Shown: positions 28,771 through 62,620 of the stretch, in pieces
How the letters are laid out: every line of letters starts with the position of its first letter
How positions within the stretch are numbered: position 1 is the stretch's first letter
Origin: Callorhinchus milii
Taxonomy: Eukaryota
Assembly (NCBI RefSeq): GCF_018977255.1
Contig: NW_024705146.1
Location: 1-64,000, forward strand
DNA length: 64,000 nt
Direction of reading: 5' to 3'
Program-made: the position numbers and the translations under genes
The notes under the pieces: generated by a model
Database searches by the model: none
What the model was told of the DNA's origin: nothing
The model's input: the letters and a program-made list of their open reading frames with translations, nothing else

Positions 28771-29390
28771 CGTCATCTCCCATCCCGGAGCGGCCTGTAT
28801 TGGATGTGTCCGACGAGCGTGTTGTGTGGCGGTGTGAGAACGCACCTCAGCAGTTTACCCCCCGTATGTCTGCAGGATCACCGTTTTTGAGTCAGGTGCC
28901 GCCCCGGGACGCATGGGAACGGAATGCGGTCTCGCCAGCGGGCGGCCGATGTTATGAGGAGAGGCGCACGTCACGGGCAGGACGCTGCCCTGCGCCCACG
29001 GAGGGATGCTCCCCGCCCTTGTCCCCTGTTCACCCAGGCCGGGGTGATGTACCGGCTGCGGAAACCCGCTCCCGAAGAGTGACTTTTTCTTGACATTCTG
29101 TGGCGTAGTAGTTGTGTTGCGTTGTCGAGGGGGGTATCGTGTATCTATGTATATGAGGGTTGTTGTGTGTTGCCGTGTGACGCGTTATGTTTAGCCGGGA
29201 CGGCTAATTTTTTAAACATGGGGAGGGGGGGGGGTGATGTAGTGCCTGAAATACGCACCACACGCAGGAGTGGGTGTACGCGCATGCAGAGTACAGTGGG
29301 AGCTGATTGGCCAGGAAGTTGTTATATTCTTAGGTTTTTTCGGTAAAGTCACGTAGGTAAAAAACATTAAAAAGTAAAATAAAATAAAAA

Positions 29391-29433
29391 TCACGACGTT
29401 TCGGAGGCAACACAAGCTTCCGTCTTCAGGTGG
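29391..29433 (-). ncRNA. Minimal type I hammerhead ribozyme motif
   Basis: Minus strand reads CAC-CTGAAGA-C-GGAAGC-loop-GCCTCC-GAAA-CGTC-GTG. Confidence 0.65.
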
Positions 29434-29907
29434 TACCGTCACAGCCACGACAGCTGTATCAAGTAAATGAGAGATTGCAGAAGCCACCACTCCGTTTATA
29501 TAATGGTTGGAGGAGGTGGTGGAGCAAGGGCCGCATACTTTTATTAATATGGTAAGGTGAGGCTTAAGACTAAGAATAGACTGCATAACAAAGGCTGAGC
29601 CTTTGATTAACCATGCAAAAGATTTAACTACACTTATTTGCCAATCTTATTTGACAGACAACCATCACAGTTTTACCATGTCTAGTGGTGGTCTCCCTGT
29701 TACAGGTTGAGTCACAAACCGCACCTCTCCATAACAAAGGCTCAGCCTTTGTTATGCAGTCTATTCTTAGTCTTAAGCCTCACCTTACCATATTAATAAA
29801 AGTATGCGGCCCTTGCTCCACCACCTCCTCCAACCATTATATAAACGGAGTGGTGGCTTCTGCAATCTCTCATTTACTTGATACAGCTGTCGTGGCTGTG
29901 ACGGTAC

Positions 29908-29949
29908 CGCCTGAAGACGGAAGCTTGTGTTGCCTCCGAAACGTCGTGA
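29908..29949 (+). ncRNA. Minimal type I hammerhead ribozyme motif
   Basis: CGC-CTGAAGA-C-GGAAGC-TTGTGTT-GCCTCC-GAAA-CGTC-GTG. Confidence 0.62.
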
Positions 29950-30879
29950 TTTTTATTTTATTTTACTTTTTAATGTTTTTTACCTACGTGACTTTACCGA
30001 AAAAACCTAAGAATATGAATCATTGCAGTCACGAAAGCTTCAAATCTACAGGAAGTTGTTGTTGTCGCTAAGTGGCGCCGTGTTGTCTGGAAAACGTGGC
30101 AGGTGCCAGCGGGGCCTGGGGGGCGAGGGGCGTCGCGGGGGATGCCACCGATTAATTGGAGATTAATTGGCTTGGGGATAAAGAGAGGGGGTTTTGAAGG
30201 AGACGTGAGTTCGCGCCTGGGAGAAGAAGGATGTTGGAGCTGAAGCAGCGGAGCCAGAAGCAGTGGAGAAGTGTAGGGTAGCAGTGGAGAAGTATAGGGT
30301 AGCAGTGGAGAAATGTAGGGTAGCAGTGGAGAAGTATAGGGTAGCAGTGGAGAGGTATAAGGTAGCGACGGAGAAGCCAGCAGAAGTGGCTGGAGTGTGA
30401 CGGCGAAGCCAGCAGAAAGCGCCTGGAGTGTGGCGGAGAAGCCGATAGGGATACGGCTGAGTGTGACGGGGGAGCCGATAAAGAGCGGCTGAACTGTGAT
30501 GGAGAGAGTGGAGAAGAGAGTCGACGGAGGAGAGACGCGGAGCAAGCGAGAATGTGGCGAGCGAGCGGCGAGCGCGAGGGAGGAATGTTGATTGGTGTTA
30601 GCTGGAGGAATGTTGATCGGTATTAGCGAAATAAAGAGAGAGAAAAACAAGAAGCTGTCGTGTTAAGTCGAGCACTACACGAGCAACTGCCAAAGTAACT
30701 TGTGCAAACATTACACTTTACATCTCTTCATGAACAATTTGAGTCGTCATCATTATCAGACATGACCAATCCACTGCTAGATGGAGGCATCCCCACTGTG
30801 CCACCATCCCACGCATTCCCGGTGCTCATTATGGCACTGATGATTTTTTACAGCAGCGGGGTCCCAACCTGCGGTGCAC

Positions 30880-34404: not shown

Positions 34405-34475
34405 GCATCGGTGGTTCAGTGGTAGAATTCTCGCCTGCCACGCGGGAGGCCCGGGTTCGATTCCCGGCCGATGCA
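34405..34475 (+). tRNA. tRNA-Gly-GCC: tRNA-Gly(GCC), intact
   Basis: GCATCGGTGGTTCAGTGGTAGAATTCTCGCCTGCCACGCGGGAGGCCCGGGTTCGATTCCCGGCCGATGCA forms a full cloverleaf, followed by an oligo-T Pol III terminator. Confidence 0.97.
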
Positions 34476-35082
34476 CATTTTTTGGTATTTTATTACAACA
34501 ATTAATTTAATAGCATTTATCTTTGCTGCACTGCTATTAGTGTGAATAATGTGGTATCTATTTTAATCTAATGATTGTTATTCACGTTTATATGTTTTCT
34601 AGATGTAGAAGAGAATTTCCATTGGAAAACGTTTTTCAGGGTTTTTACAGTATTGACTGCATTCGGTAGTTGCAGATGGAGACCCCTAGTGATCAGGGGC
34701 CTCCATGACATGCATTCCTCGGTCACGCGCTATTAACAAGGGCCCCGATAAGGTGTGGAATAGCATATAATGCCAACATTCATCACGCCAGGAAAAAAAT
34801 TGCATCCATAATAATGATGATTAGTCAAAGGCCATTTTCTTATTTTAGTCTGTGTTGGCACAGGGTAGAACCAATCCTTCATTGGTGACTGGTACCTGTG
34901 GTACAAAAAACTCATACATATTTTCAGGAGGTTCGTCATAAATAGCAGATCGTAGAAAAAGTTGCACAATAATAATCAGATTTTAAAGAAAAAGCCAAAA
35001 GCCACATTTCCAGATAAAACTTGCACAGGACTGAAAGATCAGTATTCATGAATGTCATATAAAAACAGCTGGGAAGTGTGAA

Positions 35083-35153
35083 GCATCGGTGGTTCAGTGG
35101 TAGAATTCTCGCCTGCCACGCGGGAGGCCCGGGTTCGATTCCCGGCCGATGCA
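35083..35153 (+). tRNA. tRNA-Gly-GCC: tRNA-Gly(GCC), intact, identical to the 34405 copy
   Basis: Identical 71-nt sequence followed by CTTTTT. Confidence 0.97.
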
Positions 35154-35631
35154 CTTTTTAGAATATTTATTTTTGCTTTTATCACGATATGTAACATTGT
35201 AAAGATTTAATGCACATTTAGTAGTATCGAAAAATATTACGTTCCATGTTATTGAAGAATATTAATCACACCCACTTCATTTCCTAGTATGCTAGTGGCA
35301 ACCATATCTTGAGGCCGCTTTCAGCTGGGAAAATTCGGTCGCAGTAATTGTACCAACCCAGTTCAATAACTAGTATTGGAGATGAGTAGTGACAAATTAT
35401 TTCTCTGGTCAAAATAGTTTCCAGCTATTCATCATAACAGGTGAAGAAATAGTTTTTAGCAACATCCCAATAATATAATTTGCATATAATCAATTAACTC
35501 CAGCATCATATTCGGATATTCATGAAAAATGGAAAAGTCAAAAGCCAAATATACACAGAGAAGATGCTTCCACACGACTGAAAGAAGATCAGTATTCATG
35601 CATCTGACGTAAAAAACTCATGGAGTATGTG

Positions 35632-35702
35632 GCATTGGTGGTTCAGTGGGAGAATTCTTGCCTGCCTCGTGGGAGGGCCGGGTTTGATACCTGGCTGATG
35701 CG
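35632..35702 (+). pseudogene. tRNA-Gly(GCC) pseudogene
   Basis: About ten substitutions relative to the intact copies, including a damaged B box (GGTTTGATACC). Confidence 0.85.
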
Positions 35703-35892
35703 CTTTTATCATGCTAAACAACATATTAAAGCATACATTTGCAGCTAATCGAACAAAACACCCACTATCATCTTCGGATGTTCATGAAAATGTTAAAAGT
35801 CAGAAGCAAATACACAAAGAGAACACTCAATTTTGTGCGACTGAAAAAGATCAGTATTCATCTATCTCACGTAAAAACTCAAGGAGTATGTG

Positions 35893-36559: not shown

Positions 36560-39105
36560 AACGAGCGTGGCCCCTCCGAGAAGAAGACGAAGGACAAGAA
36601 GATGAAAGCCGTTCCGTCATCCTCGGTCCGTCTGTAGACAGTGCCGTCGGTGGGTCTGCGGGTGTCAGGCGCTGGAAACCTGCAGAAGAAACAACAGAAT
36701 CCTGCTGAATTGCACCCTCCGCGACTCTTCGCCTTGGCTCGCCGGACACATCAGACACCTGCACTCAGGTGGTGGGGATGAAGTGACATCACAAGGTGGA
36801 AAATAGGGTTTCAGCCGCGACGGATGCTCAAACCAGCGCCTGCGACCGACCTGGATATGCACGCACTGCGGCCTCCTCACCTCGATCACCTTAACTGGGT
36901 CCTGCCATGGCCGGTGCAATTTAGGGGATGTGCCCAGGGGCTCGTGGGGGCAATACAACCATGCCTTGTTCCCATGGGTCTATGGGTTTCTGGATTCACG
37001 GAGTCCCACAAGCTTCTCATTGGCGGCCTGCTGTTTGGCCGAATTTTTCCGAGACGCCTCCCGTGCTTCTGTCAGCTGTCTGATCGTAAGCTGCATGGGC
37101 ATGGGCACAGCAACCTTCTTTTTGCCCAGGTCCATGACAAACTGAGCCTCCATGGCGGGATCACATTCCCTCCCATACATGAGGAAAAAGGGGGAGAACC
37201 CTATTGAGGCGTGAGGCGCCATCCTATATGCGGCCAGAACACCTGGAACCTGCAAATCCAGTCGGACTGTGCCTTGTTAACCTGTTGGCACAGCATGGAC
37301 GTGTAATGCGAGAGCGCCATCTAATGGGCAGAATGGGGTAGCCGCACGGCCACCACCGGGTAGCGGGTATTGAATCCCAAGCGGGGATATATCTGGGCCA
37401 AAGGTAATGGGCGGAGTCAAAGGGGAACGTTCGGGAACCATCGAGAAGGTTCCAACAGGGAGCGTGGCTAGAGGCGGAGCTTAGCTCCGCCGTAAGGGAT
37501 ATAAGCACTCAGGGGTCGGTGTGTGAAGCTTCAGTCCGGACTGCGTCGCTGCACAAGCCTCTCCCCGTCACCGACCATGTGGCGAACCCAGTGAGGCTCG
37601 TTCCTCCCGGCATGCCGCCAGCCAGCGGCGGGATCGGGAGTGGAAGAGAGGCAAACAGAGAGAATGACTCGTCCCCAGCCACAGAAAGAGAAGGGAAACA
37701 TATGGGGAGAGCGGAAATGAGCTGTGCAAGAATTCTATCAATAAAAGACGCCAGTAAAGATCGTCGTGGAAGTCGTTTATTACATAAGAGTCCTGTGCAA
37801 GCGCTCTACCATCCCGGATGGTAGAGCGACGTCCAGATCTTTTTATTACCCAGAGAGTTGCACACCTCCTTTAACAATTTAGAAAAAAAATTACGAGCTT
37901 GGTCTGTAAGGAGACGTTCCCGGGGCCCCCTTGTCTAAAACGTACCCATGTAGGAATGCGTCCGCGATGGACACGGCCGACTGATCTGGCAAAGGCTATG
38001 CCACCGGCCACAGGGACAGGTACTCCACCCCGACAAGAAGAAATGTATTTCGCCTCTAAGTGGCGGGAAATGGGCCGAGGGACACCTTGATAGATTGCAA
38101 CGATGGCCAGGCCTGACTTGGCGGGGGCTTTCGGCGAGCACACTTCACACAACCTTTGACCATGTTGTACACATCCTCTGACATTCCGGGCCAAAATAAG
38201 TCGCGCTTCAGGGTCAACAAGGTTTTCTGCACCCCAAGGTGCATTAACTTCACATGGACAGCCCGTGTAACTCTACTCGGCAGAACAGTTGGCACAACGA
38301 TGCAGTAACGCTGCACTTCCTCATCTCACCTCATCAACTATGAGAGACATTCCCACTGGCACCTTTTTACCACCCCTCGTTCTGATGCGATGCTGTAACT
38401 TCAACATGTGCATGAGACAATCATGTTGTCACAGGGAGCGGTTGCCGCGGATTGTGGAACATCAACCGACGCTACAACAGTGCACGGCAATCCTGCAGCC
38501 GCAGGTTTACATCGGCCGGCACCCATCATACACGCATAGCGGTCCCTCGGCGGTAATCACGACAATGCGTCCGCATTACAGTGACATGCACCTTTCCTGT
38601 AGGTGACCGTGAAGGAATAATCTTGCAAAATTTCTAACCAGCGGGAGAGCTGGCCGGATGGCTGGTCAACCTGCAACGTATATTGAAGAGCTGCATGGTC
38701 CGTGCGCACAAGGAATTGCCTACCATAAAGGGACGGTCTGTACTGCAGTACAAAATGCACAATAGCCAACCATTTGAGGCGCGTTACACAATAACGCTGC
38801 TCTGCAGGGGACAGCACACGGCTTCCATAAGATACGACCTTCTCTACTCCGTTCACTACCAGCGACAGTACAGCGCCGATTCCGGTGTCGCTGGCGTCTG
38901 TATCCAACACAAATGGCAGAGAGAAATCGGGGTACCCAAGGGGAAGCGCGTTGGCGAGGCCATCGCGCAGCGCGACAAACGCAGCCTTCTCTTCCGCCCA
39001 TCAAAATTTCTGGCCCTTTGCGGTGAGGGCTTGGAGCGGTTTAGCGATCGTCGCAAACTTGGGTACGAAGAGGCGATAGTATGATGTGAACCCGCCAAAA
39101 CTGCG
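36560..39105 (-). mobile_element. Third Gypsy remnant (RT C-terminus, RNase H, integrase) inside the tRNA array
   Basis: LDTDASDTGIGAVLS...TDHAALQY...NADALS; HLGVQKT...CVKCARRK; YRMAPHASIGFSPFFLMYGRE; PKLHRPWQDP. Confidence 0.92.
37302..37784 (+). mobile_element. Lone LTR inserted in the Gypsy integrase
   Basis: TGTAATGCGAG...TTTATTACA termini (same ends as the solo LTR at 6801-7271), TATA-like GATATAAG at ~37498, AATAAA at ~37740; integrase sequence resumes on both sides. Confidence 0.78.
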
Positions 39106-41365: not shown

Positions 41366-41710
41366 AAATTCGCATGCTTGCTTGCTTGCGTGCTTGCGTG
41401 CTTGCTTGCTTGCTTACGACCGTGCAAATCTTTCGGTCGTTTTTTAACCCACTTCCCGTGATCCAATCGAGCTGACATTTTCCACACAGACTCGTTGTGC
41501 GTGACAATTAATTTTGTGAAATTTTTTCCAAAATTTTACACTGTTTAGGGAAAACAAATTAAATATTTAATTACCAATTGCTTAATACTGGCAGACAATC
41601 ATCTGACCCATAGATGGCAGCCATCTCAAGCCAGAGGACGAGAGGACTCTAGCCGCCACGCATATAAAGGATTTAGAGTGAAAAACTTTGTTTTTACGGG
41701 TTTACTTGTT
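41366..41710 (+). mobile_element. Helitron/HINE-like non-autonomous insertion in the Penelope pLTR
   Basis: (GCTT)n microsatellite near the start, CCAATCGAGCTGACATTTT motif; reverse-complement partial copy at 46374-46490; classification tentative. Confidence 0.5.
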
Positions 41711-41881: not shown

Positions 41882-41952
41882 GCATCGGTGGTTCAGTGGT
41901 AGAATTCTCGCCTGCCACGTGGGAGGCCTGGGTTCGATTCCCGGCCGAAGCA
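41882..41952 (+). tRNA. tRNA-Gly-GCC: tRNA-Gly(GCC) variant with three stem substitutions (possible pseudogene)
   Basis: Matches the intact copies except CGTGG, CCTGG and GAAGC; directly before the N gap. Confidence 0.8.
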
Positions 41953-41953
41953 C

Positions 41954-41983
41954 NNNNNNNNNNNNNNNNNNNNNNNNNNNNNN
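41954..41983. other. Assembly gap (30 N)
   Basis: Run of n. Confidence 1.
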
Positions 41984-44900
41984 CTTCACTTGCAGCGTAA
42001 TAGGACCCTGTCTTGCGTCAAATGGTGAGAGCTCGGAGCGAGAGAGTCCGTCCGGGTCACAAATTTGTTCTGTACTAACAATAAATCGACGCCAGACTAC
42101 TTTCTTTGCGAGGTCGGCTAAATACATTTTCCGTAGTTGAATACCACTGTTAGCCTGGACTTCTGAGGTTTGGGAGCCCGTCCTGCAAGCGGTTGTGCTC
42201 TCCTTATACGGGGTCATGACTAAGAATTCGTAACACTACATATATAATGGTGCGTTGAGGAGTCCGTCCTCAACTAGCTCCGTACGATTTCGACTCAATT
42301 CCGCTACTCGGTTGTACCATGCGCTCTTCTTTACACATAGTACGATAACTTCAGGAACGTCGGGCGAAATTTAGCACCCATATCTTTAACAACGAGACGG
42401 GCCTGCAAGTATAGAATGTGGCTTCGAATAGCGCATGGTTGGTAGGTTGACGTATGTGGCACTTACGTTTAATTAGTTCGGACTATGCCGATTGACTAAC
42501 ATGAGGAAGGAAGTCTTGTCACCGTTCCACTTCACCACTGCGCTCTATCCCATTAAATGAGGTAGACAAGCGAGTCTCCCACCCGTTGTTGAGCCCCTAG
42601 CATGAGATTACTCGACACTTGTCCAGGGACCCATCATTCAGGATCAACTGTCGTCTAGGAGCGAAGAGCACAACTTGAGCGTGTCGGTCGGTTAATAACG
42701 CCCGTCGGCAGGGCGTCGCACCATTTTCGTACACAAGCGATTCTTGACTAGGCTAATGATTAACGCTTCATTGAAGGTAATTGAGCCGTCTCGTCGTCAC
42801 GGGGTACGCGCTTTCTGAAAGCCTCCTTTTCGTAGGCCACCGCTGCCATAGGACTTAAGACTATACTTGGAAGACCATTCATCTGCCAGGGAGGTAGACA
42901 AATCGGTGAAATGAGAGTATGACCTACTACAGGCATTTTGTGTACTACCGTTAGAAAAAGACATGCAGGTATCGTTATGTTAATCGAGACAAATTGTAGC
43001 GACTAAGCGTAAGGCGACCTATCACTTTGCTGGATCGAATTAAAATGAAGGCCTCGTCAAGTATTGCAGTTGTTCCCCGGCTACGCGCATAGACGAGTCC
43101 CGCTTGGCCTGGAAGACGTCCAGACATGATATCCTGTCCGATCAACTAAAGCCCGAGTAGGGCATGGCCTGATTGGTACTCGGTCTTAGGATTCTTTCTT
43201 ACATACATCCGTTTTACAGAACCGCCAGAAAAGGAGCTCTTTTAAAAGGCTGACCCGATCTCGTCCGATGAGCAGAACCCGACCTATTACCGTTGAGTTC
43301 AGAAACCCTGAATAGGGCGTTTAGGCACACCAACGGTAGAACGACTATAACTCGGTTTAGGCCCTCAACGAACAACTGTGCCCGTAACACTCTCTTAACG
43401 TAACTGTCCTCTGCATTAAGATAAGCCATACGGATCGCCGGGCGGAGGTGGGTACCGGGACGTACGAGAAGCGGCTACATTTTGACAACTTGAAACGCCA
43501 AGAGCTTGTGTGCGAAACGTAATGCTGCGGCCTCTCGGTCCGATAATACCCTACTACCCGCTGTCATTTGCCCTTTAATCCGTTATAAAGGTTGGGCTTA
43601 AGCCATAGGCGCACTCCAGTAATACCTACCAGGGGCATCCTATGCCCATTATGCGCCGGTGCATTTCTATTTCCGAACCGAACCAAGTTACTCTTAAAAT
43701 GGCATGTTACCTCCGAAGCTTTGGGCACCGCGGCACCAGCACTGCTAATAGACATTTTTAACCACAATGGGCTGACTGTCAAACGGGGCCTCCGTGTGGA
43801 CCTTCCTAGCGCTGGGCCCAGGTAACGTTCGGTCGATACACGTGTAGGGGCTGGCGGTGGAACCCTTATTGATCGAACAATGGTAATTTCCTGGTACAGG
43901 GTCCAAGTTAGGGCCTACAATTGTCTCTGAAAACGTCGCACTGCCAGCAGCGAACTGAATCAGAAACCCTTCGCTCTGATCGTTCCACGAGCGATGCCCT
44001 GGGAATGCCAGTAATACCGGTTTTACAAAAACACATACTGTGCTAAGGTCCTATTGGTTATGACCTGTGATTGGCAGGATCATTACCAGTTTCACGTTGG
44101 CTGATCATATCGGCCAGCTTTCAGACCAAGTACAACATCCAGAGCTTTCGTCTGACAGATGAGAGTCACACGCTGAAGGAGGAGGTCAAGTGAGGGAACT
44201 CTACTCCGTTCGATTTATCACCCCTCTGGCGCTATCAGTTTTCCCGTGGAAAGATCCCAAACAGCCGTGAAGGCGGACAAATCTCGGACAAGCGCCTACT
44301 AGCGACAGTGTATCTCGCGGAACGAATCAGGAGTACCTGTCTGGTGTAAGTGTGTGGTATATCTAGTTGTACAAGTCGTGTCACTGTATCTGGCTATTGA
44401 GCTTCTCACAGGAGCCTGATATCGAAGCGTGCGCAGCCTTTCCTGGAACTCGGGGGAATTGTATATGGAATGAATGAAACCGCTATATCGCTTCCGCCGG
44501 TGCAACGGCAGTCAATTGGAAGTCTACTTAGCTCGGGAGGGACAGACGCCCTTACGCTTACCATGTGGGTTCTATGTTCGAACGGAGATTGTAATCCCCA
44601 GTAGCTGAGATGTTTTACCCTCGGGTTTGCTCGAGAGAACGTTATACGGTGAGCCCTTCCGTGCGTTGCCCATTTGCGCGTGTATTGCCTTGTTGGCGGC
44701 TTGCAAGTCTTAACAGAATCCCTTCCACTAGATGTTAGTTTGTCCCCCCTTTAGTCATGCAGGCAGGCTCAGCGCATCACGGCCCGCAGCTTATCTCAGA
44801 CAACATTATGCGGGTTGGGTCTGGTGGTGCCCCACATACTAAGTTGATGCTCCCAGCCCTATCATGATACGGGATTAACGTGTATAAAGGAAAGAAAAAA

Positions 44901-46373
44901 AGACCGCCCGTGTGGTATGCGTAGAGCCGAAATCGCAAAGAGCAGACGTCTTGATGGGCACCGTCGACAGACGGGCGATACTAATACTCCAGCGAGCTTA
45001 TTCCATACTAGACCTTAGGATAAGCTAGGGCATACCCACGGTGATGGTCGTGAGAGAAATGACCATACGAGCAATCAACCAATGAATGAGTGCCTGCATA
45101 TTGGCTAACGGCCGAAGCTTCTTGTGCTGGCCATGGAAAGATAATGTTTCATACCATGGGCACCGAAACGGTGGCAGTAGTGAGCGTGTATATAATTACG
45201 ATGACCATAATCCACGGGAGCCGTGAATATCAAAGAGTTCCGTTACTATGTGTTGTGATTGTGAGGTACCTAAAACGCCTGGAAAAGTCACATCGCTCCA
45301 CAGCGAAGCGAACACTTCGCCCTAGTAGCCTATGTTACGCGGCTCATGATAGGTTGCCTCCCGCCCCACGCCACCCCCATTTTCCCCTGGTTAGCCCACA
45401 CGTGACGGTGCAGGTAGAAAATGCTGGAGTGACACAGTGCCTGACGGTTCAGTATTTGGCTCATCGCAACTGCATCGCGGACTAAGCTGCCAGATCTCTT
45501 AATGAAAATCTTTGAGTTAGAGATAACGGTTGTCCACTGGGCTGGTGCCCACCTGGGTGTTGTCATAGGCCACCTCCTTACGGCTACACTCGTCTATGCG
45601 CTGGAGTGGGGTTTGGTGGTAGCCATGCGTAATTACATGTGGGAGGCTCGAATACTTCGGTAAAATGCAAACCACGCTTATCACGTATACTTTAGGCAGA
45701 CATGACCAATAGCAGTACCCCTAGGACCAAGTACGAGTACGTATTGTCTGTGTTCCGCAAGGAAGGATCCGAGGGGGCCTGCGCAGTGTCGCCCACCCAA
45801 AGTGGTTCTACGCCGAATAAAATCGGGCCGTAGGCCGTGATCGCACTGAGGAATTTCAAACATGTGGGTATAACGAAATAGCTTCCAACGTCAAAAAGGG
45901 TCGTCGAAGATTGCTTAACGATATAACTAGTACAGGGTTCAATGGTGCCCTCCAAGACTCAAGTCCACTTCTTAAAATGATCTTATCCTATATATCCTCT
46001 TGTTTCGAATCGTGTCCCTCACGGGTAAGCGTGATATTCGAGTACTACACAACGGCACGTTAATCCAAGGTGGCAGAGTAGTACCATAGCATTTACAGCT
46101 TGGGCCAGCCCTAAAAAATTCTCCTCCCATATCTTCCCATCCTGTCCATCTCTTAGAATGCCGGGGTCCACTCTTCACAGACCATATTCAATAGGCTCTA
46201 GGAGCGCTTTGCCGGACAATAGAAAAGTTCCCCAAACTCTTTATTGACGCCCCAAACCGAGGTGTTCTAGCGGGGTATGTGACAATAAGCCTGTGACAAC
46301 CCATTTACTATAGGCCGTCTGTGTGTAGGTGACGCGACTATCTTGTGCCGATAAACACTCCCACAGCTCAGGG
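41984..46373. other. Featureless random-like sequence of non-host character
   Basis: ~50% GC by sampling, CpG and TpA both common, no repeats, microsatellites or recognisable ORFs; abrupt return to a host repeat at 46374. Confidence 0.8.
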
Positions 46374-47279
46374 CGCACAACGAGTCTGTGTGCAAAATGT
46401 CAGCTCGATTGGATCACGGGAAGTGGGTTAAAAAACGAGCGAAAGATTTGCACGGTCCTAAGCAAGCACGCAAGCAAGCGAACTTAATATAAAGGATTTA
46501 AAAATATATCTTTTTTAACTTCTTAACGGCTCTAATTGTCCACGATCAACTGACGTTGCCTGTAAATCACCGCGGTCCCTTACGTCACGGCAAGCCTTGG
46601 GGAGCCACGCCCAGGGGCGGGGCATGTGGGAGGGGAGGGGCGATGAGAAGGGGGCAGGGGCAGCTCGGACAGTACATTTCATTCAAGCGTGTTTAAAAAA
46701 AAGTATTTAAAATATTTTATTTTAACTGTCTGTTGTCATTTTTGTCATATTCTCAAATCTTGTAACTCAATTTTAACCAACTTCCCAATGTGGTATCGAC
46801 TGCAAACTTGGTATACTTATGTCATACTGATGACAATACTATATTCTTTCATTATAAAATATATATTTTAAACATTCTTTTTTATATGTTATGTTTCGGT
46901 CTAATTGTCCCCACAGTCAACTAACGTTGGCTATAATTGGCCAAGGTCCCTTACGTTGTGGCAAGCTTCGGGGCCATTTCCTGGAGTCGTGGAGTTCTGC
47001 CATTACTAGTACATTTCATAAAAGCATGTATGAAAAACAAGTGTTTTTCTTAATTATTTATTTATAGTCAAAATCGCCAAATTTGCAGAGCTTCGCTGCA
47101 AGTACAGGGAGAGACGAGAGGTGAGGCAGCGACACGCTCAGCCTCCCCTCAGACACTGGATGGACCGCGGGCACTAAGGGCTTGCCTGTTACTATCTCAA
47201 CATGTCACCAATGGAATGTTTGTAGACCCTTTCATTACATGTCCTCGCCTTCCATAGTCCAGGTAACTGAGTTCAAGTA

Positions 47280-48078
47280 CAGTAGAACCTCTGGTCACGA
47301 CCATAATTCGTTCCATAACTTTGGTCGCAACCCGATTTGGTCGTGACTCAAACCTAATTTCCCCATTGGATTGTATGTAAATATGATTAATCCATTCCAG
47401 ACTCCTACGAACTGTATATAAAGTTTTTAAAAAAATTTAAGGACAAAAATAGTTAATTATGCCATAGAATTCATTGTAATAGTAAACTAAATGTAAAAAC
47501 ATTGCATAACACTGAGAAAACCTTGAAAAACAGAGAAAACTGACAAGGTTTAGAATTGTTCAACAAGATTACTGTTTCGTCTGCTACATCAGTCCGGTCG
47601 ATTCTGAGAGAGCATATTCGTATGAGCAATTTATGTTTCTATTGAAAGTTAACAGTAATATTTGGGTACAGTATTGTTTTGGAAGCATTCACCGTAATAT
47701 CGTATGAACGTTTACTTCACCGCATCATCGTATTAATGATGCGAGAAGAGATTAACGGGTTCTTATGTTAGCGATTGATGTACTCAGCGCTTTCGCTCTC
47801 TAAACTATGGCTTGAATGAGGAAGGAGGGGTATGACTACACTTACAAAATGTATACATATCTTACTAGGAATTTTATATTACAAAAGATATATACATAAC
47901 TGTTACGCTTTGTGTAATTCAACAACAAAAATGGCGCGGAAGGGGAAATCGGCCGCGGCCGTGTTTGATCTCCACCCGAGTATGTGTTCGTGACCAGATT
48001 AAATAAACTGTTGTAAATGTTTTGGTCGAAACCCAATTTGGTCGTGGTCAGAAGCATTCGCGACCAGAGGTTCTACTG
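47280..48078. mobile_element. pogo/Tigger-like MITE
   Basis: TIRs CAGTAGAACCTCTGGTC / GACCAGAGGTTCTACTG, TA TSD. Confidence 0.88.
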
Positions 48079-48544
48079 TATGTGCATAAAGATACGTAGG
48101 CTCGCTGGTCTCGTCATGAAAGTGCAATGAAAAAGCACCAGGGGAGGCAGCTATCACATCTGCCTCACTGAGGGGGGTGGGCGTGTCAGACACACCGGTG
48201 AGGCCACGCCCCCAGTGCCTCCCCAGCCACTGACCTCATGCCATGTCACTGGCTCCCATCCATCGCGTTCAGTGTTAATTACCGAGGCTCACAGAGCAAG
48301 ACTAAGGCTCCCATAGGCTTCAGTGTGAATCACTGAGGCTCACAAGAGCCAGATGAAGGCTCCCATAGGGTTCAGTGTGAAACACAACGAAGCTCCTGGT
48401 GAGATATCTACCCAACCAACAGATCCACCAAGACTGGCCGCTCTTACCCTGCAGGTTGAACCTAAGATTTCAATGTTCTACTTCACGTTATTTTCATTAA
48501 AGGCCTGTGACAAAGGTGCATCTATTGGGCGCGACATCTCAAGC

Positions 48545-50185
48545 TTACACATCTACCGGGTCTCCATTTGACTTTATATTGTCTAGGAAGTCCACCCACA
48601 CCTCCACTTCCACAAACTGCTGTGAGTTGCCTCGCTCTGCCTTACAGTCAGAATTCCCCTCTTGCTTCACGTTGCCTCCACCGATGTGAAGGTCCCATTC
48701 TGGAGTCGAATTTTCATCTTCACATTTTACCTTCACTTCTTCGCTATTCAACGTCACCTCTTCACATTTCACAATCACCTCTTCAAATTCCGCCTTGATA
48801 CCTTTCAAAGTGCCCAAACTGGGATTTTTTTCCGGTACTTGTTTCATGAAGGATGGGCTCCTTACGGCACTTTGACTTTCACAAGCTGATTTCAGACTCC
48901 ACTCCTTGTGGATCTTCTGATGCTTTTGTGTTCTCTGGTGTTCTTGAAGATGTTGTGAACGTGCAAACGCCTTCCCGCACAGAGTGCACCTGAAGGGTTT
49001 CTCTCCTGTGTGTGTTCTCTGGTGTCTTGCAAGAACAGATGAGTATGAAAATGCCTTCCCACACACACTGCACTTGAGGGTTCTCTCCTGTGTGTTTCTC
49101 TGGTTTTGCAAGATCACTTGACTCTGAAAATGCCTTCCCACACCATGCACTTGAAGTTCTCTCCTGTGTGTGTTCTCTGGTGTTTTGCAAGATCACTTGA
49201 CTCTGAAAATGCCTTCCCACACACACTGCACTTGAAGGGTTTCTCTCCTGTGTGTGTTCTCTGGTGTCGTGCAAGATGTTGTAACTGTGAAAATGCCTTC
49301 CCACACACACTGCACTTGAAGGGTTTATCTCCGGTGTGTGTTCTCTGGTGTTGTGCAATTTGTTGCAACTGTAAAAATGCCTTCCCACACACACTGCACT
49401 TGAAGGGTTTCTCTCCTGTGTGTGTTCTCTGGTGTGTTGCAAGATTTGAGGACTGTGAAATGCCTTCCCACACACTCTGCACGTGAAGGTTTCTTCCTGT
49501 GTGTGTTCTCTGTATTGCAAGATCAGATGACTGTGAAAATGCCTTCCCACACACACTGCACTTGAAGGTTTCTCTCCTGTGTGTGTTCTCTGGTGTATTT
49601 GACAATTTGATGGACCTGCAAACGCCTTCCCACACACACTGCACTTGAAGGGTTTCACTCCTGTGTGTGTTCTCTGGTGTGTTGCAAGATGTTGTGACCG
49701 TAAAAATGCCTTCTCACACACACTGCACTTGAAGGGTTTCTCTCCTGTGTGAGTTCTCTGGTGTCTTGCAAGATCATATGACTGTGAAAATGCCTTCCCA
49801 CACAGAGTGCACTTGAAGGGTTTCTCTCCTGTGTGTGTTCTCTGGTGTATTGCAAATGTTGTGACCGTAAAAATGCCTTCCCACACACACTGCACTTGAA
49901 GGGTTTTCTCTCCTGTGTGTGTTCTCTGGTGTCGTGCAAGATATTGTGACTGTGAAAATGCCTTCCCACACACACTGCACTTGAAGGATTTCTCTCCTGT
50001 GTGTGTTCTCTTGTTTGCAGATTAGATGACTGTGAAAATGCCTTCCCACACACAATGCACTTGAAGGTTTCTCTCCGTGTTTTTCTCTGGTGTCTTTGAA
50101 GAGTTGATGAATCTGCAAACGCCATCTCACACCGAGTGCACTTGAAGGGTTTTTCTCCCGTGTGTTTTTTCTGGTGCTGTGTCAA
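48545..50185 (-). CDS. C2H2 zinc-finger gene, terminal exon: 15 fingers plus acidic C-terminal tail; frameshifted in this sequence
   Basis: Tandem 84-bp units encoding [22 protein letters not shown]; stop at 48545; many 1-3 bp deletions (pseudogene or long-read error). Confidence 0.85.
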
Positions 50186-50389
50186 AATTTCAGTCCGATC
50201 CGTGCTGTATGCACGCTGGTCGGATTGTTGCCTTGCCGTACCGAGCCGCGCTGACTGCCTGTGCTCCATCAGACCAATTCTGCAGTGGAAGCGTCAGAGG
50301 AAGCGACAGCTGCAGACAGAAAATAGCATCTACACGTCCAGTATCGAGGCACAGAGGAATGAATATACGCATATATAAGTACACAATCT

Positions 50390-50952
50390 TGATTGAAGCT
50401 TTCATGACTGCAGGAATCCATACTCTATGGTTCTTTTGGTAAAGTCACGTAGGTAGAATTAACATAAATGACGTTTCGAACGCAACACAAGCGTTCGTCT
50501 TCGGGTGAAAATTGCGATAGCTGAGATGTCTGCTGTGATTTATTTAATAAACGCTTTCATTTAACTCACTGTCTGTTGTTGTTGTCATTGTTGTTGTTGT
50601 ATCCTCAAATCTTGTAACTCAATTTTAACCCACTTCCCAATGTGATATCGACTGCAAACTTGGTATACTTATGCCATACTGATGACAATACTATATTCTA
50701 TCATAAATAAAAAAAATTTAAACAATCTTTTTACATGTTATGTTTCGGCTTGGGTCTAATTGTCCACGGTAAACTGACGTTGGCTGTAATTGACCACGGT
50801 CGCTTGTGTTACGGCAAGCCTCGGGCCACTTCCTGGAGTCGTGGAGTTCTTCCATTACAAGTACATTTCATAAAAGCGTGTTCTTAAAAGTTTTTTAAAT
50901 TGTACTTATTTTATTTCTACCTACGTGACTTTACCGAAAGAACCAAAGAGTA
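50390..50952. mobile_element. Fold-back Penelope-derived element with a nested unclassified repeat (duplicate at ~59337-59895)
   Basis: Inverted terminal motifs at ~50425-50455 and ~50915-50952; HHR-like motif on the minus strand at 50470-50508 (CCGAAGA variant); nested repeat at ~50548-50885. Confidence 0.7.
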
Positions 50953-52454
50953 TATATAAATACAGTCACACATGACTAACACGTCTATACGTATTAATAT
51001 ATTCATGATAGAGTTAAAAGTTTCCCAAATTCATCACACGGGCTGTTATGGCGCACTATGAGAGGGCAAATGGTCATAAACATTCCTGGAAGCCCTCGTA
51101 TCTTCAAAATGAATGTTAACCCAAAACTCCAAGCACACAATTTTGGCTGTCTGGCTACAAAATGAATATTCATAAGAGCTAAATTCAGCTGACATAGCAA
51201 AGGGTGTTGAAAATAATACTACTTGTGTTATGCATAAATTCATGTTCAATCGCAACTTAGAGGTGTGAAGCCAGGCTCAGGTTTCTTTGAATGCTGGGAT
51301 GAACAGATCTAACGTCAGCTGTATGTGTGCTGTGTCAACTTCCTGACTGCTTCCATTCTCATAAAGAGTTCCAGATAAAACAAAAAACATAAACCATGCT
51401 TTGATATAACCTCTTGTTCAATAGAATTAATAGACTTTACTGCAAACACAAACTTGACACTGCACACACTGCCGTGGTAAACAGGTGGTGTCGTGTCCAG
51501 AACCATGCCTGGCCCCACACCTTCATCTGCTCAGTATTAATGTTTCAGTTTCATTTATTAGGTACTAGCTTTACTACCTGGCTTCGTCCGAGACTTGGAT
51601 TCTTGTCTTGAATGAATCCACGGCCAACGCGGAGGGTGGGAGATGCGTGACGTCAGCAGCACACTGCGTGACACTGCCGCATGCGGGTGACATCACAGAC
51701 GTGAGGTCACCGCTCACTTGCCATGCAAAATATATCCATTATTGCGCCCACCCCCAAAAATGCAAAAGTAATTTTTATACTTTTTACATTGTGTACAGTC
51801 TGGAAGTACCCACATGCCAAATTTCAAGTTTGTTGCATGTCGAAAGTATGCTAAACATTTCGAACAGACACACATTCACAAATTTCCCTTTGCCATAGGG
51901 ACAATTCAGATTAAAGTTGTCAGGCTAACTCTGTACTACAAGCAAACATGGCTAACCAAAAGTTTTCAATGCTTCCTCACTCCATCAAGTAATTGAGGAT
52001 AAATCAACATAACAGAGTTTGCGTGTCTCCCTCTCTCTCAGTGGTGGCGTGGATTTTCCTCCGGATGCCCCTCCACATTAAGAGTGAACATCAGCACGCG
52101 TTTAGAGCCTTTGACCGATAGTCATTTCCACACGTTGACAAAGCCCACCTTTAATTTTGATTTAAAGCTTCGTGACTGCAGGATTCATATTCTTGGTTCT
52201 TTCGGTAAAGTCACATAAAGGGAAATAACAAATAATATCATATAAACAACAATGCACTTACGAAGCTTCAAATCATAAGAGCGGTAACAGCCACAATGGC
52301 TCGGCCTGGTTACAAAATAGAAACTTAAGTTGTCCTCGTTTGTATTTCCTGCAGTCACGATAGCTCCAAATCTCTCATTGCCATGCTCATTTCTCTACAC
52401 CCCCCCCCCCGTATCTCTCTGCCCCCCTCTCTATTTAAGCCCTTAACACAGAGG

Positions 52455-52750
52455 TGTTGTTTCTGTGTGTGCCTATGTGTGTGCCTACGTGTCTGTGTTA
52501 TCTCTCCCTGTGTGCCTATGTGTCTCTCTCTGTGTGCCTGTGTCATCTCCTCTGTGTCTCTGTGTGTCTCTGTGTGTTTATGTGTGTCTGTCTCTCTGTG
52601 TGCCTATGTGTGCCTATGTGTGTGTCTATCTCCATGTCTATATGTGTCTCTTTCTCTGTGTCTCTCTGTGTGCCTATGTGTCTCTCTGTCTCTGTGTTAT
52701 CTCTCTCTGCTTGTGTGTATGTGTCTCCATGTCTGTGTTTAGTTCTCTCT
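52455..52750. repeat. TG/TC low-complexity microsatellite (duplicate at ~61416-61700)
   Basis: Visible low-complexity tract. Confidence 0.9.
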
Positions 52751-53564
52751 CTAAATTTAGCAATCTTTGGAAGAACGTTAATAACCAGGTGGGTGTTACT
52801 GTTATGTGAGCCGACTCGCTGTGTTGTGTTGTATTGCATTGTAGTTCTAAGTTTATTTTATTTATACCTATGTAACTTTACCGAAAGAACCAAAGACTAT
52901 TGTTCTAAGTTTACAATCTTTGCTTTCTCATTCATTTGTACCTGATGGTGATTGCTCGTGTTGCAAAGGAAACGTCGTATGCTATTATTTAATTAATGTG
53001 TTCTTTCTACGTGACTTTACCGAAAGAACCAAAGAGTATGGATCCCTGCACTCACGAAAGCTCCAGATCAAGTTTAACCGAGATAATTATTTGTTTTTTC
53101 GGTAAGGTCACGTAGGTAAAAAAATTAATGAAACGAATAAATTATGAATATTATTTAGTATTAAAAAGTTTTAATGAAAAAATTGTATTAAAATTAAATA
53201 TGAAAAAAAGAAACTAAATACATTTGTTTTTCATTTATGAAAAAAAGTTTGGATAAAAAAATGATATAACTAAAATAAATGAAAAAAAACCACCACATTA
53301 AATTGGTTGTTTCTTCATTTATTGTATTTCTGCTGCCGTCACGAAAGCTTCCAGATCAAGTTGAAGCGAGAGAATTCAAACAAAGGCCTTCAGGCGAGGG
53401 CAGGAGGCGAGGCCCCGCGTGGGTAGGCCCCGCGTTGTAATGTCCCAACATGGACATGGATTCCCATACTCGCTGCGACTCAATTGACATCCATACGAGA
53501 AAGAGAGAGGCTCTACCTTGGTAAACAACAACAACCACCACCACCACAACCACCACGATGAAAA

Positions 53565-53670
53565 TCTCTCACCTCGGATTTCATCGGCAGCTTCTCGTTA
53601 CCTCGCTACGTTATGGCGGCAGCAGGATGTGACGTAATATTCACTTCCGGGGTACAAGACACGCCCCCAA
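53565..53670 (-). promoter_or_regulatory. Candidate CpG-rich promoter and first exon of ZNF copy 1
   Basis: GC/KLF box CACGCCCC (53660), ETS CACTTCCGG (53642), CRE-like TGACGTAA (53630), YY1-like ATGGCGGC (53613), minus-strand donors GAG|GTAACG and GAG|GTGAGA (~53600, ~53572). Confidence 0.5.
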
Positions 53671-54130
53671 CGAGCGGTGCTGGGTAACTGAATAACTTAT
53701 TCGAGAATTGAAGCTTTCGTCAACTGCAGGAATGACTCAACTCGTTGTACACTCATTGGCTCTTTCGGTAAAGTCACGCGTCGAGGGATGATGGGGCGTG
53801 GGTGCTGAACCCGTCGCAATAAAAAACAAACTCGCGACGGCTTTTAACGAATATATTATGTTAATTTTATTTAATTTCTTTACCGAAATAACCAATGAGC
53901 AATTCCTGCAGTCACCAAAGCTTAGATCCTAGATTATGTTAATGAGCCGCCAGTCACTGGGCGTAGCTTTGCCCAAATAAGGATTGTACGGGTCAGACAT
54001 CGACGGGACCAAGCAGGGGTGACATGACGTCACTAGCGAGGCGCACCGCCCCCCCTGGCGTTTCACGCCGATGAGGTAATGCTTAGTGGTGACGTCAGAG
54101 AGAGGGGTCAGAGTTCAAGTTTTGCGTACA

Positions 54131-54674
54131 GAGGCCGTCCATAAATGACGTCACGCGATTTTGGACAATTTTGATCCCCCTCCCCCCTCGTCACACAGCG
54201 TCACAAAAAGTCAGACCCCCCTCAAATATGACGTCACAAAGCTCTACCCCCCCCCCCTTCAAAAAAAACACGCTTCAAATCGCTTTAAACTATTGTCATT
54301 GTAGTGCGTATTTAATGTGGCGCTGCACTCTGATTTTGTAGAAGAAAACATTTATTAAAAAGGAGACCAGGGGGGTGGGGGTTGAGAAATGTGACATCAC
54401 ATCAAAATGCGCAACTTTAAATACATATAGACAACACATTCTACATAATTAAAGACTTTTTAATGTTTTCTCCTACAATCAGAATGCAGCGCCACATTAA
54501 ATACGCACACAATGACAATAGTTTAAAGCAATTTGAAGCGTGTTATATTTATTTGGGGGGCAGAGCTGTGTGACGTCATATTTGAGGGGGTTTGACTTTT
54601 TGTGACGCCGTGTGACGCGGGTGGGGGGGTCAAAAATCGTCCAAAATCGCGTGACCTCATTTATGGACGGCCCC
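54131..54674. mobile_element. Fold-back MITE, PIF/Harbinger-like (duplicate at ~63083-63631)
   Basis: Long imperfect inverted arms beginning GGCCGTCCATAAATGACGTCACGCGATTTTGGAC; no clear TSD. Confidence 0.7.
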
Positions 54675-55039
54675 CATAACCAGTGGAGATGATTTTTTTA
54701 ACCGGTCCTGAGCCACCCCTACATCGACTCATCCTCAAATGCGTACCCGGTGCGGTGTGCGAACATCGCCACCCGCTAACAGCACTTGCCCCAATAGTCT
54801 GTGAAGGCTATACCGGGGGGATCTTTGTCTTGTATGTACACACACACACGTGGCCGATTACACAGATTAAAGGTCTCGACACACGTTGCCGTGAAAGTTC
54901 ACAAATTCACGTGTCTGGTTTATTGTGTTTGGTTACAATTATTCAAAACTCGTAAATTACAGGGCGTTTCAGAAGGGTGGACCGCATCTGCTTTGAAATT
55001 GGGTGTTATGTCATTTCTGTACGATTCCAATCATTTTCG

Positions 55040-55275
55040 ATTTAAAGTTTTCGTGACTGCAGGGATTCATCTTCTTGGTTCTTTCGGTAAAGTCACGTAA
55101 AGGGAAATAAAAAATAATAAATAAACATACTAAATAAATTCTCACGTTTCGGCCAAACGCAAGCAGGCGTCACCTAACCTGCTGCGTGTGGCCGAAACGT
55201 CGTGAGAATTATTTTAAAAATTTTATTTTTATTATTTCCCTTCTACGTGACTTACCGAAAGAACCAAGAAGATGA
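55040..55275. mobile_element. Fold-back Penelope-derived element with remnants of two opposed HHR halves
   Basis: TTCGGTAAAGTCACGTA...ACGTTTCGGCC...GGCCGAAACGTCGTGAG...CTACGTGACTTACCGAAAG. Confidence 0.72.
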
Positions 55276-56384
55276 TTCCAATCATTTTTACACGCTTCTA
55301 TTTAACTCACTTCGTCTGTTGTATCCTCAAAAACGAAATCTTCTAACTCAAATTTTACACACTTCCCAATGTGCTATCGACTGCAAACTTGGTATAGCGA
55401 TGTCATATTGATGACAACACGATATTATATCATACAAAATCCATAACATAGATTTTTTTTACATTTAACACGCTTTTATTTAAATTTACTGTATGTGTTG
55501 TATCCAAAAATCTTGTAACTCAATTTCAACCGTATTCCCAATGTATCGAATGCAAAATTCGTATAGGTGTGTCATACTGATGACAATACCATATTTTATC
55601 ATTAAAAATAAATAAATATTTTTTACAATCTTTTTTACGGCTCTAATTGTCCACGCTCAACTGACGTTGCCTGTAAATCACCGCGGTCCCTTACGTCACG
55701 GCAAGCCTTGGGAGCCACGCCCAGGGCCGGGGCATGTGGAAGAGGAGCGATGAGAGAAGGGGCAGGGGCAGCTCGGACAGTACATTTCATTAAAGCGTGT
55801 TTTAAAAAAAGTATTTTAAAATATTTAATTTTAACTGTCTGTTGTCGTTTTTGTCGTATTCTCAAATCTTGTAACTCAATTTTAACCAACTTCCCAATGT
55901 GGTATCGACTGCAAACTTGGTATACTTATGTCATACTGATGACAATACTATATTCTATCATTAAAAAATATATTTTTAAACATTCTTTTTTATGTTAAGT
56001 TTCGGTCTAATTGTCCCCACAGTCAACTGACGTTGGCTATAATTGGCCACTGTCCCTTACGTTATGGCAAGCTTCGGGGCCATTTCCTGGAGTCGTGGAG
56101 TTCTGCCATTACTAGTACATTTCATAAAAGCACGTATGAAAAAGCAAGTGTTTTTCTTAATTATTATTTATAGTCAAAATCGCCAAATTTGCGGAGCTTC
56201 GCTGCAAGTACAGGGAGAGACGAGAGGTGAGGCAGCGACACGCTCAGCCTCCCTCAGACACTGGATGGACCGCGGGCAGTAAGGGCTTGCCTGTTACTAT
56301 CTCAGCATGTCACCAATGGAATGTTTGTAGACCCCTTCATTGCATGTCCTCGCCTTCCATAGTCCAGGTAACTGAGTTCAAGTA

Positions 56385-57179
56385 CAGTAGAACCTCTGGT
56401 CACGACCATAATTCGTTCCATAACTTTGGTCGCAACCCGATTTGGTCGTGACTCAAACCTAATTTCCCCATTGGATTGTATGTTAATACGATTAATCCAT
56501 TCCAGACTCCTACGAACTGTATATAAAGTTTTTAAAATATTTTTAAGGACAAAAATAGTTAATTATGCCATAGAATTCATTGTAATAGTAAACTAAATGT
56601 AAAAACATTGCATAACACTGAGAAAACCTTGAAAAACAGAGAAAACTGACAAGGTTTAGAATTGTTCAACAAGATTACTGTTTCGTCTGCTACATCAGTC
56701 GGTCGATTCTGAGAGAGCATATTCGTATGAGCAATTTATGTTTCTATTGAAAGTTAACAGTAATATTTGAGTACAGTATTGTTTTTGGAAGCATTCACCG
56801 TAATATCGTATGAACGTTTACTTCACCGCATCATCGTATTAATGCGAGAAGAGATTAACGGGTTCTTATGTTAGCGATTGACGTACTCAGCGCTTTCGCT
56901 CTCTAAACTATGGCTTGAATGAGGAAGGAGGGGTATGACTACACTTACAAAATGTATACATCTTACTAGGAATTTTATATTACAAAAGATATATACATAA
57001 CTGTTACGCTTTGTGTAATTCAACAACAAAAATGGCGCGGAAGGAGAAATCGGCCGCGGCCCTGTTTGATCTCCACCCGAGTATGTGTTCGTGACCAGAT
57101 TAAATAAACTGTTGTAAATGTTTTGGTCGAAACCCAATTTGGTCGTGATCAGAAGCATTCGCGACCAGAGGTTCTACTG
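56385..57179. mobile_element. pogo/Tigger-like MITE (duplicate of 47280-48078)
   Basis: Same TIRs and TA TSD. Confidence 0.88.
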
Positions 57180-57646
57180 TATGTGCATAAAGATACGTAG
57201 GCTCGCTGGTCTCGTCATGAAACTGCAATGAAAAAGCACCAGGGGAGGCAGCTATCACATCTGCCTCACTGAGGGGGGTGGGCGTGTCAGACACACCGGT
57301 GAGGCCACGCCCCCAGTGCCTCCCCAGCCACTGACCTCACGCCATGTCACTGGCTCCCATCCATCGCGTTCATTGTTAATTACCGAGGCTCACAGAGCAA
57401 GACTAAGGCTCCCATAGGCTTCAGTGTGAATCGCTGAGGCTCACAAGAGCCAGATGAAGGCTCCCATAGGGTTCAGTGGTAAACACCGAAGCTCCTGGTG
57501 AGATATCTACCCAACCAACAGATCCACCAAGACTGGCCGCTCTTACCCTGCAGGTTGAACCTAAGATTTCAATGTTCTACTTCACGTTATTTTCATTAAA
57601 GGCCTGTGACAAAGGTGCATCTATTGGAAGCGACATCGTCTCAAGC

Positions 57647-59132
<1,486 letters not shown>

Positions 59133-62100
59133 AATTCAGTCCGATCCGTGCTGTATGCACGCTGGTCGGATTGTTGCCTTGCCGTACCGAGCCGCGCTGA
59201 CTGCCTGTGCTCCATCAGACCAATTCTGCAGAGGAAGCGTCAGAGGAAGCGACAGCTGCAGACAGAAAATAGCATCTACACGTCAGTATCAAGGCACAGA
59301 GAATGAATATACGCATATATAAGTACACAATCTTGATTTGAAGCTTTCATGACTGCAGGAATCCATACTCTATGGTTCTTTCGGTAAAGTCACGTAGGTA
59401 GAATTAACATAAATGACGTTTCGAACGCAACACAAGCGTTCGTCTTCGGGTGAAAATTGCGATAGCTGAGATGTCTGCTGTGATTTATTTTAATAAACGC
59501 TTTCATTTAACTCACTGTTGTTGTTGTCATTGTTGTCGTTGTATCCTCAAATCTTGTAACTCAATTTTAACCCACTTCCCAATGTGATATCGACTGCAAA
59601 CTTGGTATACTTACGCCATACTGATGACAATACTATATTCTATCATTAAATAAAAAAATTTAAACAATCTTTTTTACATGTTATGTTTCGGCTTGGGTCT
59701 AATTGTCCACGGTAAACTGACGTTGGGTGTAATTGACCACGGTCGCTTGTGTTACGGCAAGCCTCAGGGCCACTTCCTGGAGTCGTGGAGTTCTTCCATT
59801 ACAAGTACATTTCATAAAAGCGTGTTCTTAAAAGTTTTTTAAAATTTTACTTATTTTATTTCTACCTACGTGACTTTACCGAAAGAACCAAAGAGTATAT
59901 ATAAATACAGTCACACATGACTAACACGTCTATACGTATTAATATATTCATGATAGAGTTAAAAGTTACCCAAATTCATCACACGGGCTGTTATGGCGCA
60001 CTATGAGAGGGCAAATGGTCATAAACATTCCTGGAAGCCCTCGTATCTTCAAATGAATGTTAACCCAAAACTCCAAGCACACAATTTTGGCTGTCTGGCT
60101 ACAAAATGAATATTCATAAGAGCTAAATTCAGCTGACATAGCAAAGGGTGTTGAAAATAATACTACTTGTGTTATGCATAAATTCATGTTCAATCGCAAC
60201 TTAGAGGTGTGAAGCCAGGCTCAGGTTTCTTGAATGCTGGGATGAACAGATCTAACGTCAGCTGTATGTGTGCTGTGTCAACTTCCTGACTGCTTCCATT
60301 CTCATAAAGAGTTCCAGATAAAAACAAAAAACATAAACCATGCTTTTGATATAACCTCCGTGTTCAATAGAATATAGACTTTACTGCAAACACAAACTTG
60401 ACACTGCTACACACTGCCGTGTTAAACAGGTGGTGGCGTGTCCAGAACCATGCCTGGCCCCACACCTTCATCTGCTCAGTATTAATGTTTCAGTTTCATT
60501 TATTAGTACTAGCTTTACTACTGGCTTCGTCCGAGACTTGGATTCTTGTCTTGAATGAATCCACGGCCAACGCGGAGGGTGGGAGATGCGTGACGTCAGC
60601 ATGCACACTGCGTGACACTGCCGCATGCGGGTGACATCACAGACGTGAGGTCACCGCTCACTTGCCATGCAAAATATATCCATTATTGCGCACACTCCCC
60701 AAAAAATGCAAAAGTAATTTTTATACTTTTTGCATTGTGTACAGTCTGGAAGGTACCCACATGCCAAATTTCAAGTTTGTTGCATGTCAGAAAGTATGCT
60801 AAACATTTCGAACAGACATTCACAAATTTCCCTTGCCATAGGACAATTCAGATTAAAGTTGTCAGGCTAACTCTGTACTACAACAAGCAAACATGGCTAA
60901 ACCAAAAGTTTTCAATGCTTCCTCACTCCATCAAGTAATTGAGGATTAAATCAACATAACAGAGTTTGCGTGTCTCCCTCTCTCTCAGTGGTGCGTGGAT
61001 TTTCCTCCGGATGCCCCTCCACATTTAAGAGTGAACATCAGCACGCGTTTAGAGCCTTTGACCGATAGTCATTTCCACACGTTGACAAAGCCCACCTTTA
61101 AATTTTGATTTAAAGCTTTCGTGACTGCAGGGATTCATATTCTTGGTTCTTTCGGTAAAGTCACATAAAAGGGAAATAACAAAATAATATCAATATAAAA
61201 CAACAAATGCACTCACGAAAGCTTCAAATCATAAGAGCGGTAACAGCAGCACAAGTGGGCTCGGCCTGGTTACATAAAATAGAAACTTAAGTTGTCCTCG
61301 TGTTGTATTCCTGCAGTCACGATAGCTCCAAATCTCTCATTGCCATGCTCATTTCTCTACACCCCCCCCCCGTATCTCTCTGCCCCCCTCTCTATTTAAG
61401 CCCTTAACACAGAGGTGTTGTTTCTGTGTGTGCCTATGTGTGTGCCTACGTGTCTGTGTTATCTCTCCCTGTGTGCCTATGTGTCTCTCTCTGTGTGCCT
61501 GTGTCATCTCTCTCTGTGTCTCTGTGTCTCTGTGTGTTTATGGTGTCTGTCTCTCTGTGTGCCTATGTGTGTGTCTATCTCCATGTCTATATGTGTCTCT
61601 TTCTCTGTGTCTCTCTGTGTGCCTATGTGTCTCTCTGTCTCTGTGTTATCTCTCTCTGCTTGTGTGTATGTGTCTCCATGTCTGTGTTTAGTTCTCTCTC
61701 TAAAATTTAGCAATCTTTGGAAGAACGTTAATAAACCAGGTGGGGTGTTGACTGTTATGTGAGCCGACTCGCTGTGTTGTGTTGTATTGCATTGTAGTTC
61801 TAAGTTTATTTTATTTTATACCTATGTAACTTTACCGAAAGAACCAAAGACTATTGTTCTAAGTTTACAATCTTTGCTTTCTCATTCATTTGTACCTGAT
61901 GGTGATTGCTCGTGTTGCAAAGGAAACGTCGTATGCTATTATTTAATTAATGTGTTCTTTCTACGTGACTTTACCGAAAGAACCAAAGAGTATGGATCCC
62001 TGCACTCACGAAAGCTCCAGATCAAGTTTAACCGAGATAATTATTTGTTCTTTTCGGTAAGGTCACGTAGGTAAAAAAATTAATGAAACGAATAAATTAT

Positions 62101-62514: not shown

Positions 62515-62620
62515 ATCTCTCACCTCGGATTTCATCGGCAGCTTCTCGTTACCTCGCTACGTTATGGCGGCAGCAGGATGTGACGTAATATTCACTTCCG
62601 GGGTACAAGACACGCCCCCA
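62515..62620 (-). promoter_or_regulatory. Candidate promoter and first exon of ZNF copy 2
   Basis: Same motif cluster as 53565-53670. Confidence 0.5.

Follow-up and report, generated by a model that had tools for sequence, protein, structure and literature searches.

The 64,000 nucleotides of Callorhinchus milii DNA analysed here (positions 1 to 64,000 of contig NW_024705146.1, assembly GCF_018977255.1; referred to as the window in this text) contain a single run of Ns, and flush with its right end lies a block of 4390 nt that is the subject of this report. The features of the window are compiled in Table 1. To the left of the N run, four copies of a tRNA-Gly(GCC) gene are clustered on the forward strand. 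Three of the four reach the Rfam threshold; the copy at 35632 is degenerate and fails. The N run starts one base after the last called base of the rightmost copy. On the other side, a tandem duplication of ~9 kb starts ~130 nt past the block. Its two copies are 94-96% identical, and each of them carries an 84-bp C2H2 zinc-finger array on the reverse strand. Either a genuine duplication of a gene or a haplotype left uncollapsed could explain this arrangement.

Several mobile or repetitive features were observed elsewhere in the window. A pol region resembling that of LTR retrotransposons encodes protease, reverse transcriptase, RNase H and integrase in this order and is split across several frames. 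Related RT/RNase H remains are found at two further places, one of them inverted. Together with the C2H2 zinc-finger arrays, these retrotransposon remains are in keeping with an animal genome. We also noticed an inverted repeat with two arms of 282 nt that are 99.6% identical and lie ~130 nt apart, which is either a fold-back element or an assembly artefact, and an unclassified family of dispersed repeats of ~300-330 nt, the five copies of which are 80-86% alike.

Table 1. Positions of the features in the window (+, forward strand; -, reverse strand;., no strand)
Feature	Positions	Strand	Remarks
LTR-retrotransposon-like pol	495-4761		split across several frames
Dispersed repeat, five copies	8959-9290, 46731-47046, 50580-50916, 55840-56174, 59522-59861		unclassified
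RT/RNase H remains	near 26265-27415		related to the pol region
Inverted repeat	29324-29605 vs 30016-29735		within 29324-30016
RT/RNase H remains, inverted	38552-38919		related to the pol region
tRNA-Gly(GCC), first three copies	34405-34476, 35083-35154, 35632-35703	+	third copy degenerate
Partner repeat copy	41396-41501	+	context; used for placing the right junction
tRNA-Gly(GCC), fourth copy	41882-41953	+	ARAGORN; Rfam RF00005, 55.8 bits; host context, not artefact
30-N gap	41954-41983	.	sole N run of the window; flush with left end of block
drand48 pseudo-random block	41984-46373	+	cut-offs 0.26/0.51/0.76 (A,T,G,C); 4390/4390 reproduced
Host repeat fragment	46374-46479	-	left end cut abruptly; resumption of real sequence
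Tandem duplication, ~9 kb	46502-55040, 55610-64000		two copies
C2H2 zinc-finger arrays	48927-50176, 58029-59123	-	one in each duplication copy

A first, sequence-only reading had noted that the DNA after the gap is ~50% GC and rich in CpG and TpA. The base fractions of the block (A/C/G/T = 0.253/0.250/0.246/0.251) and its dinucleotide odds ratios confirm this. After strand symmetrisation, all 16 ratios lie between 0.96 and 1.04 (CpG 0.97, TpA 1.03), whereas both dinucleotides are depleted in the rest of the window (CpG 0.78 to the left and 0.76 to the right of the block, TpA 0.76 and 0.70). Serial tests against uniform, independently drawn bases gave p values of 0.93, 0.91, 0.95, 0.85 and 0.61 for k = 1-5. 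Dinucleotide independence is not rejected for the block (p = 0.77), but it is rejected for all 13 other 4390-nt tiles of the window (p <= 1.1e-6). Compressibility, homopolymer runs and autocorrelation agree with simulation as well. The comparison with an i.i.d. model had been proposed in the same reading. When 30 features were compared with 500 simulations, four fell into the lowest 5% (0.020-0.046), namely the GC variance at three scales (100, 200 and 400 nt) and the evenness of 4-mers; none lay beyond the simulated range.

The coding potential and the repeat content of the block are likewise those of random DNA. Its longest stop-free frame of 131 aa, described before as lacking a recognisable motif, is about as long as the simulated mean of 134.5, and none of the four frames of >100 aa lying wholly within the block matches Pfam at E <= 0.1. 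Searches for tandem arrays and Rfam families found none between 41984 and 46373, in line with the arrays reported as absent. Two short internal repeats that had been quoted are indeed present (42044/42260 and 42559/42891), and so is an 8-bp hairpin at 42254-42274. Against the remainder of the window, the block gave nothing better than 14-mers at E = 2.9, and neither an inverted second copy nor a terminal repeat of it was found there. A viral or cellular homologue, named earlier as something that would refute an artefact, did not emerge from the collections searched: the block is without a match in 72,556 plasmids and 20,395 E. coli records, and 50,697 phage records yielded only fragments with E >= 1, in 5 records. 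A look-up screen against these collections would therefore miss it. In a further search with the query 41984-48900 (63% block, 37% right flank), 20 of the 22 sequencing runs listed contain a part of the query and none contains half of it (best share 0.16). These shares cover the block and the right flank jointly and were not used as evidence.

A random look is insufficient proof of an artificial origin. Therefore, known generators were tested against the letters of the block themselves. The generator that fits is the 48-bit linear congruential one, x -> (0x5DEECE66D*x + 0xB) mod 2^48, with the state read as a fraction. We took its constants to be those of drand48 and Perl rand(), and running Perl 5.32 and glibc verified this. 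The state was searched for in a reduced 44-dimensional lattice from 44 observed bases, allowing for 24 base orders, both directions and four offsets. Eight of the 192 targets were solved, namely two offsets with four equivalent base orders each (Perl positive control: 10/10 solved). Between the states recovered at these two offsets lie exactly 2800 steps, as many as there are bases between the offsets. With cut-offs at the quarters, the stream matches 4252 of the 4390 bases. Among the 138 differences, every one of the 40 listed is a swap between neighbouring bins. It was the assumption of quarter cut-offs that had left the other two offsets unsolved at first. When the generator values were grouped according to the base seen at each position, the cut-offs could be bracketed at 0.25964-0.26062, 0.50995-0.51005 and 0.75986-0.76044. 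If values under 0.26 are read as A, the next ones under 0.51 as T, then those under 0.76 as G and the remaining ones as C, with one draw per base, 0 of 4390 bases mismatch and there is no indel. A fit of this kind would arise by chance with a probability of ~10^-2600, with all 2^48 states, the 24 base orders and the 2 directions allowed for. The block is exact drand48 output and not natural DNA.

The same letters can be obtained with ordinary tools. Real Perl 5.32, given int(rand(100)) and the rule <=25 A, <=50 T, <=75 G, else C, writes 4390/4390 bases, and glibc drand48 reproduces all of them as well. Used in this way, <=25, <=50 and <=75 constitute an off-by-one error that gives 26/25/25/24%. 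The language of the script is not fixed, since drand48 in C yields identical letters. Multiplier, increment, modulus and the single step per base are all those of POSIX drand48 and Perl rand(), so the generator itself is identical to a known system; the mapping to bases is a user's rule. As there is no substitution or indel, nothing has changed the block after it was written. The slight over-evenness mentioned above is chance, because the generator yields every base. The block encodes nothing and does nothing; it is without biological function.

We could also look backwards along the stream for the point where it may have been seeded. The seed-shaped state nearest to the block lies 2889 steps before 41984 (seed 4211096374), which would mean that the script had made just 2888 earlier draws. 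This link is only suggestive, because such nearness arises by chance ~4.4% of the time (2889/65536, ~0.044). None of 250,000 small or default seeds tried comes nearer than 1.9e9 steps.

To delimit the generated DNA, the window was scanned with 44-mers at a step of 4 on both strands, using the correct bins. Inside the block, all 1087 of 1087 were solved on the forward strand and 0 on the reverse strand; elsewhere, 0 of 14885 were solved on the forward strand, and the reverse strand gave 0 of 15972 in all. No other match to the window came from 3 million draws to each side of the block (best E = 0.63). A 16-base match of an earlier draw at window position 14725 was rejected, being AT-rich and near chance. 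To the left of the gap the generator does not match. On the right, the stream fits through 46374 and then drops to chance (6 of the 29 following bases). Base 46374 (C) agrees with both the generator and the repeat partner, and the right end is therefore either 46373 or 46374.

As described previously, host sequence resumes abruptly at 46374 in the middle of a repeat: the fragment is 95% identical (101/106) to the reverse complement of its partner, and of the 40 bases just before 46374, 10 agree with the continuation of the partner, which is the chance level. The ends of the block share an inverted match of at most 5 nt, and no direct match longer than 6 nt links the two flanks, so neither a TIR nor a TSD exists at the block ends beyond these chance matches, as had been stated before.

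Other generators were tried and discarded. The rules lrand48()&3, MSVC rand()%4 and ANSI-C (s>>16)%4 reached at best 25-27 of 40 bases (27/40 over all states for lrand48()&3) in a test that had no positive control. Additive lagged generators with 8385 lag pairs gave a best p of 0.0002, which is chance, and the lag-3/31 relation of glibc rand produced a chi2 of 60.6 in the block compared with 6566 in a control (the two glibc controls of the additive-lag test gave 6566 and 4401). Small-state GF(2)-linear generators did not fit either, with a linear complexity of 2194-2197 against an n/2 of 2195 and 128 for an xorshift control. For the Mersenne Twister, seeds 0 to 3 million and 45 popular seeds, each followed through 49.9 million words, gave 0 matches, and 4/4 controls were found. 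The drand48 generator run at two steps per base solved 0 of 96 targets.

Some of these rules are of interest as known systems. Some aligners and assemblers swap N for random bases, for example by lrand48()&3 in BWA-type indexes or by rand()%4 in some long-read assemblers. The block shares with them the idea of uniform random bases in place of Ns. However, their low-bit and additive-feedback rules do not fit, whereas the block uses high bits and skewed cut-offs. Narrow literature searches brought up no description of generator-made filler in assemblies, which counts somewhat against such a step; methods supplements may hold one.

How the generator output came to be in this place has to be judged from its surroundings. 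It has contig-like ends on both sides: a tRNA copy followed by the N run to its left and a cut repeat to its right. The block was therefore likely written by an assembly script that replaced the Ns of a scaffold gap, a step that we infer from this position. The site would be that of a sized scaffold gap between two contig ends, the left one made up of a multi-copy tRNA gene and 30 N, and the right one belonging to a contig that starts inside a repeat. A script probably turned the Ns into random bases, either for a tool that does not tolerate N or for a scaffold that looks free of gaps, and the random bases would afterwards never have been re-masked. Two observations speak against gap filling. 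A plain script replacing all Ns would leave none, yet 30 N persist, so that either an incomplete fill or a scaffold broken and rejoined afterwards must be assumed. Moreover, the 44-mer scan and the 3 million draws on either side show that a second filled gap is absent from the window.

The perfect identity with the generator and the presence of only one block in the window would also fit output added after assembly, whether planted deliberately as a negative control or written over a masked or gapped stretch during data preparation. We regard this as rather unlikely. An arbitrary insertion would rarely be placed flush with the sole N run and end within a repeat as contig ends do, and the off-by-one drand48 idiom appears to resemble a hand-written Perl or C utility. 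It is also conceivable that a computer-made test or spacer string, such as a random contig linker or a simulated sequence, entered through a merged file instead of by N replacement. Starting from the seed-shaped state, such a string may have been up to ~7.3 kb long and trimmed on the left, and it too would account for a single block. This seems improbable, since a seed-shaped state can lie that near by the chance given above and gap filling offers a simpler reason for the position at a gap.

The earlier suggestion of a sequencing control turned out to be unlikely. Designed controls can consist of random sequence, and a deep consensus can lack errors, so a real synthetic molecule (a sequencing control or spike-in) made with a random-sequence script might have been assembled perfectly and mis-joined to host DNA. 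Even so, we give this very little credence, slightly less than the test string: there are zero edits across 4390 bases, no inverted second copy or terminal repeat, no plasmid or E. coli match and only the insignificant phage fragments, and the junction with the cut host repeat is seamless. Synthetic controls and adapters that persist in public assemblies exist as physical molecules; they turn up in many data sets, and a look-up can catch them. The likeness of the block to them ends with its being artificial sequence in a genome record; it is an unedited generator stream without a match in the plasmid, E. coli and phage collections. Natural foreign DNA (a virus, a horizontal transfer or an unknown element), for which nothing more speaks than ~50% GC without CpG depletion, is excluded by the exact reproduction from a 48-bit generator, the lack of compositional bias, open frames as in random DNA and the absence of Pfam, Rfam or nucleotide homologues and of terminal repeats. 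Shuffled host DNA is rejected too, the generator alone supplying the letters.

Gap filling thus remains the likeliest of these origins. The sequence-only reading had called the block probably non-biological and listed filler, shuffled or synthetic DNA and controls side by side; its main claim stands, now with an origin from random bases established base by base. Extending this beyond the window, we are inclined to think that pseudo-random DNA written by a script stands for the Ns of a gap, and probably of other gaps as well, in a public vertebrate reference assembly. Contamination screens based on look-up would be blind to such DNA, which can be recovered exactly from ~44 bases.

The block is the DNA of no organism and does not represent the true sequence at the gap, and we advise masking it as N. 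How the flanks are ordered and spaced across the gap, with the tRNA-Gly cluster on the left and the zinc-finger duplication on the right, is best regarded as unverified. If the block is present in the deposited record, the filler conceals a gap that no database match flags, and it could pass for orphan DNA or for DNA acquired horizontally. Its biological importance is nil; it matters as a problem of assembly quality. The state-recovery test provides a yes/no proof from ~44 bases and covers the whole window in ~10 seconds, which makes it usable on whole assemblies. If such filler is systematic, a scan across the genome and across assemblies would map it and show to what extent it inflates contig continuity.
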